The notes below the pieces were generated by a model that worked only from the letters and a program-made list of their open reading frames with translations, was not told the origin of the DNA and ran no database searches. From a virus (taxonomy: Duplodnaviria > Heunggongvirae > Uroviricota > Caudoviricetes), in IMG/VR virus record IMGVR_UViG_2562617113_000016: a DNA stretch of 12,583 bases, one strand, 5' to 3'. Within the stretch, counting starts at the first letter, position 1. Every line of letters begins with the position of its first letter. This document shows positions 1-11,343 of the stretch, piece by piece. The position numbers were made by a program, and so were the translations under genes.

Positions 1-1371
1 TCAGGCTGTCGCAGGGTCGTCACATTTTGGCAGCCAGTCGCCGTAGCTTTCCTCTTTCAGCGTCAGGTTGGTCTGTATCCCCTGTTTGGTATGGCGCTTC
101 TCGTAATTCAGTCCGTATTCCTTCAGCATCACCGGCAGCCCCAGCCCGAACATTTTCAGACTGAGTACATTCCGGTAGCCGTTTGCCTCCATGTAGGCCA
201 GATAGGCGTGATAGAGGTATTTACGGTAATTACGCGGGATGATACTGGCGTTCCCCATATACATGCCGCTGGTCTGCGGCAGGGTTTCCAGATAGCCGAT
301 AAAATCAAACGTCGGGTCGGCATCCCGTTTGATGTTCAGTGCCTCGTCTGAGTTCTGCTGGGACTGAAGCAGTGACCGGGCGAGCATCGGGTCGCTGAAC
401 TTCTGCATCAGGTGACGCACGATGACCGCCAGCTCGCGGGTGATTTTGTCCTTAAGCTGCGGGTCGCGCTCCTGCGGGGCTATCTGTTCCGGGAAGTGAA
501 TAATCACCCGCCGGCGTGACACGCCGCCGCTGCGGTCGGTGAAGCGCATCGGGTTATTGTTCACGGCCAGAATCACCGCCGGGATATGCGTGGAGTACGC
601 ATCCCGGTATTTCGGGTCCACGGACACCGCATCGCCGCCGGTGATGGCCTTGAGTCCGGCACCGTCGCCGCTCCATTTTTCCTGGTCCGGCAGGCGTATC
701 AGTGAGAAGCCAGTTAACGCGGCACGTTCACGCGGGGATTCCAGCGTCTCAATGGTGGCCGACGTGGCGTTATCCTCCCCGGCCAGCAGGGTGGCTATTT
801 CGGCCATGATACTTTTGCCGCTGCCGCCGGGACCGGTCACCTCCAGAAAGAGCTGCCAGTCGTAGCGGTTTGCCAGCACCATAAACAGTGCGGCCAGAAT
901 CACGTCGCGTTTTTCCGCACGGCCACCGGCGGCACGGTCAAGCCAGCGCCAGAACGCGGGGGCGTGGGTCTCCAGCGTTTCACCGTCCACCGGCGGGGTG
1001 AAATCCACATCGCACAGGGTGCGCATCCAGTGTAACGGACTGTGCGGGTGGAACGTGCCGTTCTGCGTGTCGAGCACGCCGTTACGAAAGCCAATCAGGC
1101 GGCGGGAGGGGGCTTCCTGCTGTGGAATAATCAGCTTCAGGGTGTCCACCACGGAGGCCACCTTCCCGGAGGAGAACGGCGCGCGCAGACGCTGAAACAG
1201 CCCGGCCACATCCCGGGCAAAGTCCTGTGGCGGCAGCACCTTCCAGACACCATTTTCATAGCGGGACAGAAGCTGGCCGTTGGCATCGACCGCGAGCGCC
1301 TCACCGTAATGCTCATAGATACGCATGGCCTTTTCGCTGGTACTCATGGCGGAAAACTCTGCTTCGCTCAT
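1..1371 (-). CDS. alpha: P4-type alpha protein, C-terminal helicase/origin-binding portion (ORF downstream of the frameshift)
   Basis: 456-aa ORF; translation matches the C-terminal two thirds of P4 alpha as I recall it, including a P-loop-like GPGGSGKS. Stop codon at 1-3. Open frame continues upstream of the ATG to about 1536. Confidence 0.85.
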   Translation of the reverse strand: MSEAEFSAMSTSEKAMRIYEHYGEALAVDANGQLLSRYENGVWKVLPPQDFARDVAGLFQRLRAPFSSGKVASVVDTLKLIIPQQEAPSRRLIGFRNGVLDTQNGTFHPHSPLHWMRTLCDVDFTPPVDGETLETHAPAFWRWLDRAAGGRAEKRDVILAALFMVLANRYDWQLFLEVTGPGGSGKSIMAEIATLLAGEDNATSATIETLESPRERAALTGFSLIRLPDQEKWSGDGAGLKAITGGDAVSVDPKYRDAYSTHIPAVILAVNNNPMRFTDRSGGVSRRRVIIHFPEQIAPQERDPQLKDKITRELAVIVRHLMQKFSDPMLARSLLQSQQNSDEALNIKRDADPTFDFIGYLETLPQTSGMYMGNASIIPRNYRKYLYHAYLAYMEANGYRNVLSLKMFGLGLPVMLKEYGLNYEKRHTKQGIQTNLTLKEESYGDWLPKCDDPATA

Positions 1372-2333
1372 GGTGTCGAACGGGCTTTCAGCCGGTGGCC
1401 GGATGGCATCGTAAATGGCCTTACGGGTGGCCTCCCCGCCGTACTGCGTGAAGGCATCATTCCAGTCACCGAAGACCGGCGGCAGGGCAACAACGCCCTC
1501 ACACGCATCTGCGGCTGCGGCAGCTTTTTCTGGCCGTCACCGCTGAGGTCACGGTCTGCGGCAAGGACAATCTGACAGGCCGGATGCTTCTGCCGGGCAA
1601 GGCTGGCCAGAGAAAGGAGGTTCACGGAAGAAAGCGCCACCATCACCGTTTCACCGGTCAGGTGATGCACGGTAAGTGCGGTCGCGTATCCCTCCGCTAT
1701 CCACAGACGTTTTCCGGCCTGATTCTGTCCTTCAAGGGTGTGACAGGTGCCCCTGACCTGTCCGCCTTTCAGGGTGCGCTTACGGCCGTCAGCACTGATT
1801 AACTGAAGGTTAACCAGTTCGCCGCTGTCGTCATACAGTGGCACCACAAGGTCACCGGCACGCCAGCTCACGCCACCGGCTCTGTGTGTGCCGGTCAGCA
1901 TCCGGCATTCCCGGCCGGGAAAGCCCTTGCGGGTCAGGTAGGCGTTACCGGTTCCGGGACGGGTTTTCGCCATCAGGGTTTGTGCCAGTGCGGCGGCGTT
2001 CTTCCGGGCAGCGTCTGTTTCAGCAACGGCGGCAGCCGTCACTGCCGGGTCAGCCGGTGGCAGGCTGCCGGTCACGGCAGCCACCTTTGCGGCCGCGTCG
2101 GACGGGGAAACACCAAACACCTTTTCAACCAGTTTCAGGCCGTCACCGGCACCACACTGATTGCAGTACCAGGTGCCGCGCCCCTCCCTGTCATCAAAAC
2201 GGAAGCGGTCACTCCCGCCACAGACCGGACAGGGCTGATGACGGTTTTTCAGCACCTGAATCCCCAGCGCCGGGAGAATACGCGGCCAGTGGCCGAGTGC
2301 ATGGCTGACGGTGGCGGTTACGTTCATTTTCAT
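1368..2333 (-). CDS. alpha: P4-type alpha protein, N-terminal primase portion (zinc-binding CxxC...CxxC plus primase core); last ~51 codons are out of frame
   Basis: 321-aa ORF starting MKMNVTATVSHALGHW with CPVCGG...CNQCG zinc motif. Good RBS (AGGAG) about 9 nt upstream of the ATG at 2331-2333. The tail after GDGQKK looks like frameshifted read-through ending at TGA overlapping the ATG of the downstream ORF. Confidence 0.85.
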   Translation of the reverse strand: MKMNVTATVSHALGHWPRILPALGIQVLKNRHQPCPVCGGSDRFRFDDREGRGTWYCNQCGAGDGLKLVEKVFGVSPSDAAAKVAAVTGSLPPADPAVTAAAVAETDAARKNAAALAQTLMAKTRPGTGNAYLTRKGFPGRECRMLTGTHRAGGVSWRAGDLVVPLYDDSGELVNLQLISADGRKRTLKGGQVRGTCHTLEGQNQAGKRLWIAEGYATALTVHHLTGETVMVALSSVNLLSLASLARQKHPACQIVLAADRDLSGDGQKKLPQPQMRVRALLPCRRSSVTGMMPSRSTAGRPPVRPFTMPSGHRLKARSTP

Positions 2334-4385: not shown

Positions 4386-4439
4386 CGGGCTACCTCGTTA
4401 ATGTCCATACAGCACCGGATAAGTCCGTCCGGCTTCGGG

Positions 4440-4505
4440 TAGCGCTTTATTTTGTGAATATTTTTGGCAGACGCAACAGGGGGGATTTGTTCCGGCAGCC
4501 TTACA
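4440..4505 (-). promoter_or_regulatory. candidate Delta/Ogr-activated late promoter (PLL-like) driving the vis-like gene
   Basis: TGT-N12-ACA dyad at 4488-4505 (TGTtccggcagccttACA); a start about 55 bp downstream on the minus strand would fall near 4441. Confidence 0.45.
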
Positions 4506-4530
4506 ATGACTGTGTGTTTTTTGTTCATTC

Positions 4531-4560
4531 CCACTTAAAGTCATTTAAAGCCACTTAAAG
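4531..4560. repeat. three tandem 10-bp repeats (C/T)CA(C/T)TTAAAG
   Basis: CCACTTAAAG TCATTTAAAG CCACTTAAAG, helically phased, between the PLL-like dyad and the iteron cluster. Confidence 0.6.
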
Positions 4561-4664
4561 CAATTCGTAATTTTTATAGTGAAATACAAATCGTTTCTTC
4601 TTATTCATTCACAGCGAATTAATAAAAACAAACAGTAGTAAACAGCACAAAAAGTCCATGAGCG

Positions 4665-4768
4665 GGTGAACAGTGGTGAACAGACGGTGAACAGTCATTA
4701 CTGCGATTGTTCACCCTTTAACTTACTGTATTACTTATCTTTTTTTTATGGTGAACAGAGGTGAACAG
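4665..4768. repeat. iteron cluster of P4 type I (TGTTCACC / GGTGAACA) alpha-binding repeats; candidate ori
   Basis: GGTGAACAG at 4665-4673, 4675-4683, 4686-4694, 4750-4758 and 4760-4768, plus an inverted copy TGTTCACC at 4708-4715; 10-11 bp spacing; flanked by A-rich tracts. Confidence 0.6.
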
Positions 4769-4849
4769 TAAAATATAAAAAAAAACAAACAGTAAGCCGG
4801 TTTTTCCTGCGACCTTTTCCTGGCTTGCCGGTCTGAGGATGAGTCTCCT

Positions 4850-6243: not shown

Positions 6244-6816
6244 ATGGAAAGCACAGCCTTACAGCAGGCCTTTGACACCTGTCAGAATAACAAAGCAGCA
6301 TGGCTGCAACGCAAAAATGAGCTGGCAGCGGCCGAACAGGAATATCTGCGGCTTCTGTCAGGAGAAGGCAGAAACGTCAGTCGCCTGGACGAATTACGCA
6401 ATATTATCGAAGTCAGAAAATGGCAGGTGAATCAGGCCGCTGGTCGTTATATTCGTTCGCATGAAGTCGTTCAGCACATCAGCATCCGCGACCGGCTGAA
6501 TGATTTTATGCAGCAGCACGGCACAGCACTGGCGGCGGCACTGGCACCGGAGCTGATGGGCTACAGTGAGCTGACGGCCATTGCCCGAAACTGTGCCATA
6601 CAGCGTGCCACAGATGCCCTGCGTGAAGCCCTTCTGTCCTGGCTTGCGAAGGGTGAAAAAATTAATTATTCCGTACAGGATAGCGACATTTTAACGGCCA
6701 TCGGATTCAGGCCTGACGCGGCTTCGGTGGATGACAGCCGTGAAAAATTCACCCCTGCGCAGAACATGATTTTTTCGCGTAAAAGTGCGCAACTGGCATC
6801 ACGTCAGTCTGTGTAA
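6244..6816 (+). CDS. psu: Psu, polarity suppression / capsid decoration protein
   Basis: 190-aa ORF following delta; size and position as in P4. Confidence 0.85.
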   Translation: MESTALQQAFDTCQNNKAAWLQRKNELAAAEQEYLRLLSGEGRNVSRLDELRNIIEVRKWQVNQAAGRYIRSHEVVQHISIRDRLNDFMQQHGTALAAALAPELMGYSELTAIARNCAIQRATDALREALLSWLAKGEKINYSVQDSDILTAIGFRPDAASVDDSREKFTPAQNMIFSRKSAQLASRQSV

Positions 6817-6980: not shown

Positions 6981-6999
6981 GGCGAGGCGGGGAAAGCAC
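6981..6999. other. cos: P2/P4 cos site (19-nt cohesive-end sequence)
   Basis: GGCGAGGCGGGGAAAGCAC matches the P2/P4 cohesive-end sequence as I recall it; sits in a GC-rich dyad context just downstream of psu, as in P4. Confidence 0.75.
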
Positions 7000-7170: not shown

Positions 7171-7199
7171 TTGCGATTGTTTAACGCATTTTTTATTAT
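7171..7199 (+). promoter_or_regulatory. candidate sigma70 promoter for the first cargo gene
   Basis: TTGCGA (7171-7176), 17-bp spacer, TATTAT (7194-7199) in AT-rich DNA upstream of the 434-aa ORF; several alternative hexamers exist nearby. Confidence 0.3.
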
Positions 7200-7241
7200 G
7201 ATGCAGATTTTATTATTACTAATGGGGTGCAAAAAACACGT

Positions 7242-8531
7242 ATGAAAAAAAATGTTGGTAACCGCAATAAAAATTCTGATGTGCTTATTCTTAAAGGTAT
7301 GTTGAACAATTTAAAAGATGGTTTAAATAATTTTGAATTATTGCTTAAATTGCAGTTTAAAATATTGGTGTGCGTGATGAGATGTGAGCGGAAAATTAAG
7401 TTTCTTAAAAAGAATAATGCTCATTTAAGGTCGGTGTTAAAAAAATCAAGACTTCCAAAAGAAAAATCTCTGGCAGTAAAAGAAAAAATTAAATACAATT
7501 CTGAAGTAATTACTGCTGAAAAATTCAAGATATATACGTATAAAATGTTTGGCGATGCTGTTGCATTTTTATACATCGATAAATATACAATTAAACAGTT
7601 ATACTACAATGTACATAATTACAATGTTAAAGAAACGTCGGGGGATTTGAGCGGTAAGTCTGGATTGCGAGAGGAATGGGAATGCGTAAAACTTGCATGT
7701 GATAATAAAGTTCCAGCTCTGTTGCATGATATTACAATGAGTATAAGGCATGGAGATGTATCACTTTTAGGTAAAGATGAGCCATTTATTATTGAGATGA
7801 AATCAAGCTCAAATACAAATAAGAGAGTTGAGCGGCAAAAATCTAACCTTGAAAAATTAGGAAGTTTCATAGCAAAAGACGAAGCTGAAAATTTTCGAGG
7901 GATTCCATTGTTAATCAGGAAAAATTTGTTAACTGAAGAGGAATCATATTCTCAGGTTTTAAATGAGTGTCTTAATGATTGTCGCAGCAAAGGAATGGCT
8001 TTGGTTGAAGCTGAAAAAGGATTTTATATCTGCGCAGTTAGAGAAGGGAATATGGCTTCTATGCTAGAAAATATAGATTTTGATGAAAAAAAAGAAGTTT
8101 TTCCTGTATTTCTCAATCAATATAAAAATAATGGGGAATGGCTACCATTAACACCATTTACACTATTAATTAACGATCCTTACGATCTCCATGATTTTAT
8201 CGAAGGGGAATTAACAATAGCTTGTTTTTTAATGCTCGATGAATACAAAAAAATTGCTATAGAACTAGGCTATGAATTAGTTTTTGTTTCAAATGATGAA
8301 TATAGTATCTTGTTAAAAAGAATTGGTGAAGATATTATATTTGGTGTTTCCTGGCAAATGTTGTTAAGAGTTCCATTAGAGATGATGTCCATGTCATGGT
8401 TGATAAAAGAAAGTATTAATATATATAGTAACTCCCTAGAAAATAGCACCCATAATGATGAATTAAATCAGGGGCAGGGAAATACTAAAAATTCATTATT
8501 CGAAAAATACAAGAATTTATTTTCTTACTAA
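7242..8531 (+). CDS. cargo protein A, unknown function, putative PD-(D/E)xK-fold nuclease
   Basis: 1.3-kb ORF in AT-rich DNA, where random ORFs of this length are improbable. First ATG at 7242; track start is GTG at 7227. Motif ...PALLHD(168)...FIIE(190)MK(192) fits the hhhD...hhhExK pattern. No strong RBS seen. Confidence 0.8.
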   Translation: MKKNVGNRNKNSDVLILKGMLNNLKDGLNNFELLLKLQFKILVCVMRCERKIKFLKKNNAHLRSVLKKSRLPKEKSLAVKEKIKYNSEVITAEKFKIYTYKMFGDAVAFLYIDKYTIKQLYYNVHNYNVKETSGDLSGKSGLREEWECVKLACDNKVPALLHDITMSIRHGDVSLLGKDEPFIIEMKSSSNTNKRVERQKSNLEKLGSFIAKDEAENFRGIPLLIRKNLLTEEESYSQVLNECLNDCRSKGMALVEAEKGFYICAVREGNMASMLENIDFDEKKEVFPVFLNQYKNNGEWLPLTPFTLLINDPYDLHDFIEGELTIACFLMLDEYKKIAIELGYELVFVSNDEYSILLKRIGEDIIFGVSWQMLLRVPLEMMSMSWLIKESINIYSNSLENSTHNDELNQGQGNTKNSLFEKYKNLFSY

Positions 8532-8563
8532 TTAAGCATTGTAATTATATTTGATTTTTTCTA

Positions 8564-8597
8564 CAGGCTTGGACGGAATCATATAGCTCCAAGCCTG
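8564..8597. terminator. hairpin between the convergent cargo genes (candidate terminator, mainly for gene A)
   Basis: Perfect 10-bp stem CAGGCTTGGA / TCCAAGCCTG with 14-nt loop; followed by TGTTGTGTC on the plus strand; a T-run precedes it. Confidence 0.5.
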
Positions 8598-8632
8598 TTG
8601 TGTCGGTATCAAAAAGAAAGTGATATTATTGT

Positions 8633-10006
8633 TTATCTAATATATTTTGTTACTTCCATATTATCTTCATCGTCAAAAGAGTACTCAACCATCATACGAC
8701 TATTTTTACCTGACTTAATATCTTGAAGCCAAGCTGAGGCAACCCTAGGGTCTAAATGCTGTTTTCTACTCAGCTCATTATTTTTTAGCCTATCAAGCCT
8801 TATTGCTCTTTGAAGAGTTTTATCGATGTAGTCTTCCAAATCAATGGACAACCTCCTTTTTGGATATAAATATTGGTATTCATCACACAATAGTACTCCT
8901 GGTAATTTAATTTCGCGTAGGTCGAAAGAATACCAACTATAGTTTTTAGACTCATTAGCTAATTCCGAAACTAGATGAGCCCCATTTTGTTGTAAGAGAG
9001 ATATTTTGTGATCGATGCTAATGTCAGATATTTCTCTTAAAGACTCAAAATGCATGTTTTCGTAGATAGTATTTAATAAAATACTCTCCATGTAAGAGTA
9101 AAAATCAGTACCATCGATGATAATATTAGTTTCATTGTAGACTGCAAGAGACATAAGATATATGAAGAAAACTGCGGGAGTACTATTACCTCTGTTTATA
9201 TCAAGTCTAAGGGAGTTGACATAATCAGGCGGAGAGTTTGAGAAAATTTCTCTTATTAACCAGTCTGGAATAGTGGTTCTTGTTAGAATGTCAGCGTTCA
9301 AACTTGAACGACATAAAAAAATACACATCTTTAATTTTAATTTTATTGAAAATGATGGGAATAAATGATCGATGAAAGATAAAATACATGTATACTCTGC
9401 TAAGTCTGTTTGTTGCAACTTTTCTTTTATTTCATTTTCAAGCATTTTTAATTTAAAAAAATCATTCCTTTTTTCTAATATTTCCCAATGAAATAATTGC
9501 TCCTGAGCGTACGCATGCCCCTCTAAAATAGCTAGCATGCTTAAAGGAATGTTTAGGATTTCTTGATAATTATTAACATACCCAAAGAAATGGACTCTGA
9601 TATACACACCCATATCGTCATCATATTGTAATGATGCTTTAATATTTTTATAATTTAATTTATTAGTGCTGTTGTTTTTGAAGTGATAATGTAAAGTAAT
9701 TTCAGTATCATCAACTAATAAATTATCAAAAGCCTCCTTTGTTTCATATTTAAAATAGTTATATAGCCGACATGAATAATTTAACCCCCAGTGAGTTGTA
9801 GAACAATCAAGTAAATGGATTGTTTCATGGAGATATGTTTTATAAAATTCAATTTCGCTATCATCAAAATCATATATGCTTTTACTGTCTATGATATTTT
9901 GTGCTTGCGGTAAACTTATATTTAATTCATCGTTTGAAATCTCAATTAAATGTGATGAAAAATCATAAGAACCCAATGTTTTGCTGTTAAATATACATCC
10001 GCTCAT
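8633..10006 (-). CDS. cargo protein B, unknown function, putative zincin-like metallopeptidase (HEXXH)
   Basis: 457-aa ORF in AT-rich DNA. HETIH at residues 60-64 (DNA 9815-9829) in the context YKTYLHETIHLLD. Start ATG overlaps the integrase stop (ATGA) with AGGGGA RBS 6 nt upstream. Confidence 0.8.
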   Translation of the reverse strand: MSGCIFNSKTLGSYDFSSHLIEISNDELNISLPQAQNIIDSKSIYDFDDSEIEFYKTYLHETIHLLDCSTTHWGLNYSCRLYNYFKYETKEAFDNLLVDDTEITLHYHFKNNSTNKLNYKNIKASLQYDDDMGVYIRVHFFGYVNNYQEILNIPLSMLAILEGHAYAQEQLFHWEILEKRNDFFKLKMLENEIKEKLQQTDLAEYTCILSFIDHLFPSFSIKLKLKMCIFLCRSSLNADILTRTTIPDWLIREIFSNSPPDYVNSLRLDINRGNSTPAVFFIYLMSLAVYNETNIIIDGTDFYSYMESILLNTIYENMHFESLREISDISIDHKISLLQQNGAHLVSELANESKNYSWYSFDLREIKLPGVLLCDEYQYLYPKRRLSIDLEDYIDKTLQRAIRLDRLKNNELSRKQHLDPRVASAWLQDIKSGKNSRMMVEYSFDDEDNMEVTKYIR

Positions 10007-10278
10007 AGCAAATCCCCTAAAAGATAATCAGAGTACCATTGAATCATCGTTTTCCTTTGAGAAAAATATTGTGCGTGATTATAGGTTCCTCGGATATTGT
10101 TCTTATCAACATGTGCTAATTGCATTTCAATCCAGGTACTATCAAATCCCTGTTCATGTAGGATTGTTGACATTGTATGTCTAAAACCGTGACCTGTAGC
10201 ACGTCCTTTGTAACCAAGTAACTCAATCACTTGTGAAACACTTTCTTTTGAAATTGGTTTGCTACGTAACCGGCTCAT
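10003..10278 (-). pseudogene. int: tyrosine recombinase (P4-type integrase), C-terminal remnant only
   Basis: 91-aa ORF with catalytic-domain signature GHGFRHT...LAHVDKNNIRGTYNHA (R-H-R-Y region). The upstream in-frame codon is a stop and no integrase-like sequence is found further upstream; IS DNA begins there. Confidence 0.8.
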
Positions 10279-10318: not shown

Positions 10319-10996
10319 ATGTCCATCATTTTTAATGGACACTATCGTATGAAACACCGGACCTGGATCACTGAAGCTTTACGTCTTCACTTTGAAGAAC
10401 ATTTACCCCGGGTTGTGGCCGGGCGTCGCCTGGGTGTACCAAAATCAACAGTTTGTAGTATGTTCGTGCGCTTTCGGAGAGCTGGCCTTTCGTGGCCTTT
10501 GCCCGCAGGCATGTCGGAGCAGGAACTTGATGCCTGCCTTTACGGACAATTTTCCACGGTACCAGTCGTACGTCCTGAAAGCACCGTTATATCCGAAGCC
10601 CCCGTGGTAAAAAAACGTCCCCGGCGGCCCAACTTCCCTTATGAGTTTAAAATCGCCTTAGTGGAGCAGTCACTGCAGCCCGGAGCCTGTGTGGCGCAGA
10701 TCGCCCGGGAAAACGGAATCAACGATAACCTGCTCTTCAACTGGCGCCATCAATACCGGAAAGGTGGCCTGCTGCCTTCCGGAAAAAATATGCCGGCACT
10801 GCTTCCCGTGACGTTAACGCCGGAGCCGGATAATAAAATCCCGGCCCCCGCACAGGAACCAGAGCAGATAAATACACCGTCCGACAGTCTGTGTTGTGAG
10901 CTGGTTCTGCCGGCCGGAACTCTCAGGCTTAAAGGTAAACTGACGCCGGCGTTATTACAGACACTTATCCGCGAAATAAAAGGGAGCAGCCACTGA
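10319..10996 (+). CDS. tnpA: IS66-family TnpA (orf1) accessory protein with HTH; N-terminal extent uncertain
   Basis: 225-aa ORF. C-terminal part (KRPRRPNFPYEFKIALVEQSLQPGACVAQIARENGINDNLLFNWRHQYRKG) is a transposase HTH typical of IS66 orf1. N-terminal about 90 aa carries a second HTH (LRLHFEEHLPRVVAGRRLGVPKSTV...AGLSWPLP) that resembles IS21-family IstA N-termini from memory. Confidence 0.65.
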   Translation: MSIIFNGHYRMKHRTWITEALRLHFEEHLPRVVAGRRLGVPKSTVCSMFVRFRRAGLSWPLPAGMSEQELDACLYGQFSTVPVVRPESTVISEAPVVKKRPRRPNFPYEFKIALVEQSLQPGACVAQIARENGINDNLLFNWRHQYRKGGLLPSGKNMPALLPVTLTPEPDNKIPAPAQEPEQINTPSDSLCCELVLPAGTLRLKGKLTPALLQTLIREIKGSSH

Positions 10997-11343
10997 TGAT
11001 ATCTCTCCCTGCAGGTTCGCGTATCTGGCTGGTTGCAGGTATCACCGATATGCGAAATGGCTTTAACGGCCTGGCATCAAAAGTTCAGAACGTCCTGAAG
11101 GATGACCCGTTCTCCGGACACCTGTTCATCTTCCGCGGACGCCGGGGTGACCAGATAAAAGTGTTGTGGGCTGACAGTGACGGACTGTGCCTCTTCACCA
11201 AACGCCTGGAGCGGGGCCGCTTCGTCTGGCCAGTCACCCGTGACGGCAAGGTGCACCTTACTCCGGCTCAGTTATCCATGCTTCTTGAAGGTATCAACTG
11301 GAAGCACCCGAAACGAACGGAACGCGCTGGAATCCGCATATAA
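10996..11343 (+). CDS. tnpB: IS66-family TnpB (orf2)
   Basis: 115-aa ORF with ATGA overlap to tnpA; sequence (..GLCLFTKRLERGRFVWP..) matches IS66 Orf2-like proteins as recalled. Confidence 0.85.
   Translation: MISLPAGSRIWLVAGITDMRNGFNGLASKVQNVLKDDPFSGHLFIFRGRRGDQIKVLWADSDGLCLFTKRLERGRFVWPVTRDGKVHLTPAQLSMLLEGINWKHPKRTERAGIRI

Follow-up and report, generated by a model that had tools for sequence, protein, structure and literature searches.

A predicted nuclease with an Hjc-like PD-(D/E)xK core, encoded by a cargo gene of a P4-like satellite

Introduction

What might a gene labelled 'hypothetical protein' be doing in a slot where satellites are known to keep defences against phages? The question is raised by a stretch of 12,583 nucleotides from the IMG/VR virus record IMGVR_UViG_2562617113_000016, here called the window. 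The window is a P4-like satellite: a primase (alpha) gene is followed by sid, delta, psu and a cos-like site at 6981-6999. Shortly downstream lies gene A (7242-8531, plus strand), which encodes 429 amino acids and carries that RefSeq label (WP_000742539.1). The answer proposed here is that A is a credible, predicted new phage-defence nuclease, since it combines a place in hotspot cargo with catalytic residues that never vary and with a family that no library searched here names.

The interval between psu and int is an established anti-phage hotspot of P4-like satellites (PMC9122126). This slot and the gpA-portal slot of P2 have both been defined as defence hotspots (PMC9122126, PMC13586616), and restriction enzymes are known from them (PMC9122126). 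Of eight P4 loci without assigned function that were picked at random, six gave phage protection (PMC13586616).

Start codon and motif

A preliminary description of this DNA had placed a PD-(D/E)xK-like motif at 7728-7802, within a protein of 434 amino acids. The motif is where it was said to be: translation of the window gives the peptide VPALLHD-ITMSIRHGD-VSLLGKDEPFIIEMK at these coordinates. The length needs correction. An open reading frame from GTG 7227 does exist and gives 434 residues, but ATG 7242 is more likely the start, as it is in RefSeq and in all close homologs. The extent of A as given here follows the list of open reading frames, the RefSeq annotation of an identical locus and the N-termini of the homologs.

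Counted from GTG 7227, the motif residues are D168 (7728-7730), D177 (7755-7757), E190 (7794-7796) and K192 (7800-7802). With the start at ATG 7242 they become D163, D172, E185 and K187, and this numbering is used from here on.

A motif of this kind is in itself not remarkable. Of 20,000 composition-matched shuffles, 627 (about 3%) satisfy a comparable regular expression, so the bare pattern is weak evidence. The case that it goes beyond chance rests on conservation.

Family and conservation

Homologs of A were at first scarce, with 12 clusters in the first search. A profile search of 1.84 billion representatives then gave 989 clusters, 426 of them at E <= 1e-30. The members of these clusters are nearly all about 400 amino acids long and match end to end. 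A third search, with the alignment as query, yielded just two more proteins. The alignment holds 141 full-length homologs with a mean pairwise identity of about 30%.

At this level of divergence, 7 of the 429 columns are invariant: D105, G141, E145, D172, E185, K187 and Q199. D163, T165, R169, G171, R195, R226 and R376 are nearly so, with at least 98% of the homologs keeping them. Motif residues that vary among homologs would have contradicted the preliminary description. D172, E185 and K187 are identical in all 141, so that objection clearly falls away.

The preliminary description left it between the two aspartates which one is catalytic. The second candidate, D172, is most likely the catalytic one. 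It is the first residue of strand beta2 in the predicted structure and it is invariant. D163, at the end of strand beta1 according to the model, is kept in 99% of homologs. E185-M-K187 (7794-7802) closes strand beta3. Many PD-(D/E)xK enzymes have E...D...ExK...Q as their extended catalytic signature. The putative active site is completed by E145 upstream (7674-7676, helix alpha1) and by Q199 downstream (7836-7838, helix alpha2), the latter flanked by R195 and R198, which are kept in at least 90%.

The family has no name in any library searched here. Single-sequence searches of A against Pfam, PADLOC (v2), NCBIfam and PDB gave no useful match, and the accessions were found in no paper of the literature searched. 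PHROG 14906 does match A, over residues 4-428 of its 429-position profile with E = 4e-135. It is the same family, clustered earlier from phage or prophage proteins. As PHROG 14906 carries no annotation, it adds no functional information on A. The family is large and patchily distributed, and in the libraries searched it appears to be undescribed.

Predicted structure

A first AlphaFold run on 12 homologs had a predicted local distance difference test score (pLDDT) below 50 at residues 116-141 and 163-181, which is the motif region. It is superseded by an AlphaFold (AF2) model made with 141 sequences, which reaches a pLDDT of 94.1 and a predicted template modelling score (pTM) of 0.92, and which has three modules.

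The first module is a long antiparallel helical hairpin, residues 13-111 (7278-7574), with model helices at 13-26, 31-68 and 73-111 and a pLDDT of about 98. It ends in 'FGD' (7551-7556), whose G104-D105 our analysis calls invariant. The preliminary description had called the N-terminus basic, and rightly so. Residues 1-111 carry a net charge of +17 in A and of +9.5 on average in the family, compared with +3 for whole proteins. A basic hairpin is compatible with nucleic-acid binding, and equally with oligomerisation; a role in binding is conjecture.

The second module, residues 141-226 (7662-7919), is the Hjc-like PD-(D/E)xK core, delimited from the model, the profile and hhalign comparisons and the Pfam census described below. 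It starts with helix 141-154, which includes E145. Strand 159-161 leads to D163, and strand 173-177 is opened by D172. Strand 179-184 then runs into E185-x-K187 and is followed by helix 194-212, with R195, R198 and Q199, and by strands 214-218 and 221-225. The order helix-strand-strand-strand-helix-strand, compared as element order and residue positions, fits the alpha-beta-beta-beta-alpha-beta core of restriction endonucleases. The preliminary description had proposed this core arrangement, and it is now supported by conservation, by element order and by a profile match to Hjc.

The third module is an alpha/beta domain at residues 237-405 (7950-8456), seen in the AF2 model. Its conserved residues are E258, G260, P305, F319, R376, E380 and S383. 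It resembles nothing in Pfam or PDB, and may serve as a sensor or regulatory module. We considered whether it could be a second, degenerate nuclease domain. Comparison with the core by hhalign gave a probability of at most 2%, which rules this out.

Searches with the whole protein model returned coiled-coil noise only, with matches dominated by the helical hairpin. The hairpin swamped these searches, and no similarity to PD-(D/E)xK folds in three dimensions emerged from them.

Relationship to Hjc

A profile of 141 positions around the core found a single match in PDB, ST1444 (2eo0), at E = 1.3. This structure was confirmed to be an Hjc resolvase. With a tighter profile of 95 positions (136 sequences), Hjc accounted for four of the seven PDB matches: 1hh1, which was the best at E = 0.086, 4tkk, 2eo0 and 4tkd. 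The alignment spans the whole core. It puts G141 and E145 on the N-terminal G-S-x-x-E of Hjc, D172 on the Asp of its 'PD', and E185 and K187 on its E-x-K.

Alignment of the core to two Hjc fragments by hhalign gave a probability of 90.8% and E = 1.2e-6 over 77 columns, with the four catalytic residues matched. As controls, the columns of the Hjc side were shuffled 200 times, with 25.5% as the highest probability, and the sequence was reversed, which gave 0.1%.

In the Pfam census, the 136 family cores were scanned singly at a lax threshold. Hjc led with 10 matches, followed by PDDEXK_9 with 7, Card1_endonuc with 3 (best 1.5e-4), and PDDEXK_10 and TnsA_N with 2 each. MmcB (MmcB-like), SmaI, NOV_C and RE_EcoO109I had one each. 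All of these are under the curated gathering scores. For Hjc (PF01870), the core of A itself scores 12.5 bits at a gathering cut-off of 21.1, and the best family member has E = 0.0079. A control census of the C-terminal domain found no PD-(D/E)xK family in Pfam and no match in PDB. From a profile that is Hjc-like and scores that stay below threshold, it follows that A has an Hjc-like PD-(D/E)xK core without belonging to the Hjc family.

Location and mobility

In the window, the hotspot is bordered on the left by psu (6244-6816, plus strand, from the annotation of an identical locus). On the right is the 3' remnant of the P4 integrase gene int (10003-10278, minus strand), interrupted around 10267 by an IS66-type element. 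The cos-like site between psu and the cargo reads GGCGAGGCGGGGAAAGCAC, which we take to be the 19-nucleotide P2/P4 cohesive-end (cos) sequence, and the GC content falls immediately downstream of it. A cargo block of some 3 kb at 27-35% GC follows directly, set in a backbone of 52-64%. This contrast marks the block as foreign cargo. It consists of two convergent genes, A and its neighbour B (8633-10006, minus strand).

The order psu-A-B-int is present in 10 of 5,426 complete Escherichia coli genomes, at 99.5-100% identity. Around 3,000 complete E. coli genomes have the P4 flanks with other cargo, GapS4 for example. Besides these 10 genomes, the psu-int slot also holds a variant of A at 74% identity (L010/L011). 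The gpA-portal slot of P2 holds homologs too, in Citrobacter, where A is alone, and in Serratia. In the Serratia P2-like prophage (L001 9771-11141) the homolog is followed by a protein of 456 amino acids that is unannotated, unrelated to B and without a Pfam domain on record.

Some carriers have decayed. In Pluralibacter (L012, L007-L009) the A homolog is intact inside a decayed P4 with truncated int, where B is reduced to a trace of 64 amino acids. It is likewise intact in a P2 remnant (L093) with fragments of capsid and terminase genes. That A stays intact in decayed elements suggests selection on A independent of its carrier.

Other homologs sit elsewhere. In Pantoea (L021 8001-9032) a 36%-identity homolog lies outside the psu-int slot and converges on the 3' end of a P4-like alpha gene; in Stenotrophomonas (L029) 3.4 kb separate another one from a portal gene of P2 type. 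Most family members are found outside P2 and P4. Neighbourhoods were compared at 78 family loci, from Proteobacteria, Acidobacteriota, Chloroflexota, Planctomycetota, Bacteroidota and other groups. Gabija, Shedu, integrases, ArdC and YoeB are among the neighbours, and none is common to the 78. A tblastn search found A in none of 50,697 deposited phage genomes and in just three plasmid-labelled records. With no shared neighbour and such varied contexts, A behaves as a single gene that moves horizontally and needs no partner.

Neighbouring gene B

B (WP_001406847.1) has 457 amino acids and is labelled 'hypothetical' by RefSeq, as A is. Five homologs at 34-73% identity share an invariant HExxH (H60, E61, H64) and an equally invariant block E162-G-H-A-Y-A-Q-E169. 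Judged by these motifs, this is a zincin-like metallopeptidase signature. B has no match in Pfam, PADLOC or PDB, a PDB profile search included. One homolog stands alone in an integron-like cassette array of Vibrio parahaemolyticus, and B is probably a module independent of A. The start of B and the stop of int overlap by 4 nucleotides.

Between the convergent genes A and B, the sequence has a perfect inverted repeat at 8563-8598, with stems of 11 base pairs and a loop of 14 nucleotides. It is possibly a terminator shared by both, and was not called by a terminator scan of the window.

Explanations

What, then, is A? We consider it moderately probable that A is a stand-alone, single-gene anti-phage effector with an Hjc-like PD-(D/E)xK nuclease core. 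The motif, its conservation, the order of secondary-structure elements and the profile similarity to Hjc are all observed, and they describe the core. The mobility as a single gene, the hotspot location and the retention in decayed carriers are observed as well, and they describe the gene. Metal-dependent cleavage, a part in defence, the trigger, the substrate and a sensing function of the flanking domains are what we infer. In this model, the domains around the core would attach to nucleic acid, form oligomers or detect infection. The core, with E145, D172, E185 and K187, plus Q199, as the catalytic set, would thereupon cleave DNA with the help of metal ions. Phage DNA as such and branched replication intermediates are both possible targets; if all DNA were cut, the outcome would be abortive infection.

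A more specific version of this reading is possible but doubtful. A would found a single-protein family in which the C-terminal domain and the basic hairpin sense infection and license an Hjc-like, structure-specific nuclease. This nuclease would cut branched intermediates of phage replication or recombination, and would not depend on sequence or modification. A resolvase fold would thus have been recruited for immunity, and spread through many bacterial phyla by P2, P4 and other mobile elements. Branched DNA as the substrate is suggested by the Hjc resemblance alone.

Instead, A could be a solitary modification-dependent (Type IV-like) restriction endonuclease, whose C-terminal domain reads modified phage DNA and whose core cuts it directly, with no abortive infection. 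A PD-(D/E)xK core without methyltransferase or other conserved partner would suit such an enzyme, as would an extra domain without known fold and hotspots already known to carry restriction enzymes (PMC9122126). However, in Pfam, NCBIfam and PADLOC no Type IV family and no known reader of modified bases resembles A, and its core has its nearest relative among structure-specific resolvases rather than restriction enzymes. We think this unlikely; it is in any case a sub-case of the stand-alone effector, and differs in trigger and substrate only. About as improbable is that A and B form one two-gene system, in which the metallopeptidase-like B controls or activates the nuclease A, or in which both form a toxin/antitoxin-like pair. 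They are adjacent in every complete E. coli genome that has either, and in a second P4 lineage they have diverged alike (74% and 73% identity). Yet the two genes run towards each other instead of forming an operon, and B overlaps int. Citrobacter, the P2 remnant and the 78 diverse loci have A but no B, and in Pluralibacter A outlived B; B homologs also occur without A, as in the Vibrio array. As a conserved partner of A, B is ruled out, given the unrelated protein in Serratia and the lack of any common neighbour.

The resemblance to Hjc and the location in P2 and P4 elements could also mean that A serves the mobile element itself. It would then be a junction-resolving or recombination nuclease for replication, packaging or integration of the satellite or prophage, or else a counter-defence factor. 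The numbers speak against this: with 10 carriers in 5,426 complete E. coli genomes, as against roughly 3,000 that have the flanking P4 sequences, A is not a core function of the element. It occupies a variable cargo slot with a GC content far below that of the backbone, it survives where its carrier has decayed, and its relatives mostly live outside P2 and P4. We regard such a role as very improbable. Only marginally less probable still is that the motif is a catalytically dead or non-nuclease relic, in a domain that only binds nucleic acid or has some other activity. In its favour, all family-level matches are sub-threshold and the whole-protein structural searches returned noise. When PD-(D/E)xK domains become inactive, however, the acidic residues and the lysine are typically lost, and A's D172, E185 and K187 have been kept without exception at about 30% identity.

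Other features of the window

Upstream of A, a sigma-70-like promoter match TTGCGA-17-TATTAT is found at 7171-7199 on the plus strand, 43 nucleotides before ATG 7242. It comes from a consensus scan only. GC skew is strongly positive on the coding strand of A, at 0.25-0.31 over 7201-8400, and this is not seen in B.

The intact element in NZ_CP027462.1 carries A and B at 100% identity. Elsewhere the two elements differ. In the window the alpha gene (1-2333, minus strand) has a deletion of one nucleotide around 1524, which splits it into open reading frames 1-1371 and 1368-2333. The GC content of the window dips to 0.38 at 4401-4800, between an AlpA-like regulator gene and sid, where the backbone is otherwise at 54-58%. 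Two compensating indels of one nucleotide each (4745 and 4777), relative to NZ_CP027462.1, are located inside this dip.

Homology to intact P4-like elements stops at 10266. The IS66-type element in the integrase gene has tnpA at 10319-10996 and tnpB at 10996-11343, and then a longer region of open reading frames. Its insertion left an integrase remnant of 91 amino acids. This copy of the satellite is probably immobile.

Comparison with known systems

If the proposed explanation is true, a family of about 1,000 sequence clusters without a Pfam, NCBIfam or PADLOC model gains a catalytic assignment and a likely defence role. Single-gene nuclease defences would gain a new architecture, made of a hairpin, an Hjc-like core and a domain without detectable relatives, and one still unannotated cargo type of the P2/P4 hotspots would be filled. 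The hypothesis is also cheap to test, because the invariant residues are ready-made loss-of-function mutants. Current ideas are not overturned, since nucleases are to be expected in defence hotspots.

Hjc (PF01870; 1hh1, 4tkk, 2eo0) is a one-domain dimer of archaea and their viruses. It shares with A the order of core elements and the alignment of four catalytic positions. Both have G-x-x-x-E in helix 1 and a D that opens strand 2, and in both the E-x-K of strand 3 has a Ser after it. The Hjc chain is about 140 amino acids long, whereas A has 429 in three modules and is bacterial or satellite-borne. Unlike Hjc, A has an added helical hairpin of 100 residues and a C-terminal domain of 170 residues, and it has the extra conserved residues D105, D163, R169 and Q199.

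Shedu SduA (DUF4263) is similar in another way. As proposed for A, it is a PD-(D/E)xK effector fused to non-catalytic domains, encoded by one gene in defence islands or hotspots, with no methyltransferase partner. The nuclease of A is central, while that of SduA is C-terminal, and the flanking domains are unrelated. A has no SduA_C/DUF4263 (PF14082) match and no PADLOC SduA match.

Recent work concerns the same slot. It describes Bandua, a NERD nuclease with a kinase, and Aernus, a DUF4365 PDDEXK protein with AbiGii (Moura de Sousa et al. 2026, PMC13586616). In that study, the Foldseek matches of Aernus 5A are reported to be led by Holliday-junction-resolving enzymes (PMC13586616). Neither A nor B matches Crouga, Bandua, Aernus, Toga, Reve or Hailong from that study, and four 20-mers of gene A were not found among its synthesised constructs (PMC13586616). 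Like A, Bandua and Aernus come from the psu-int hotspot, and they were absent from defence databases when found. Their proteins carry recognisable Pfam domains (NERD; DUF4365 and AbiGii), whereas A carries none. The family of A appears to be new to the libraries searched. As a nuclease effector in a defence hotspot, A would be of a familiar kind.
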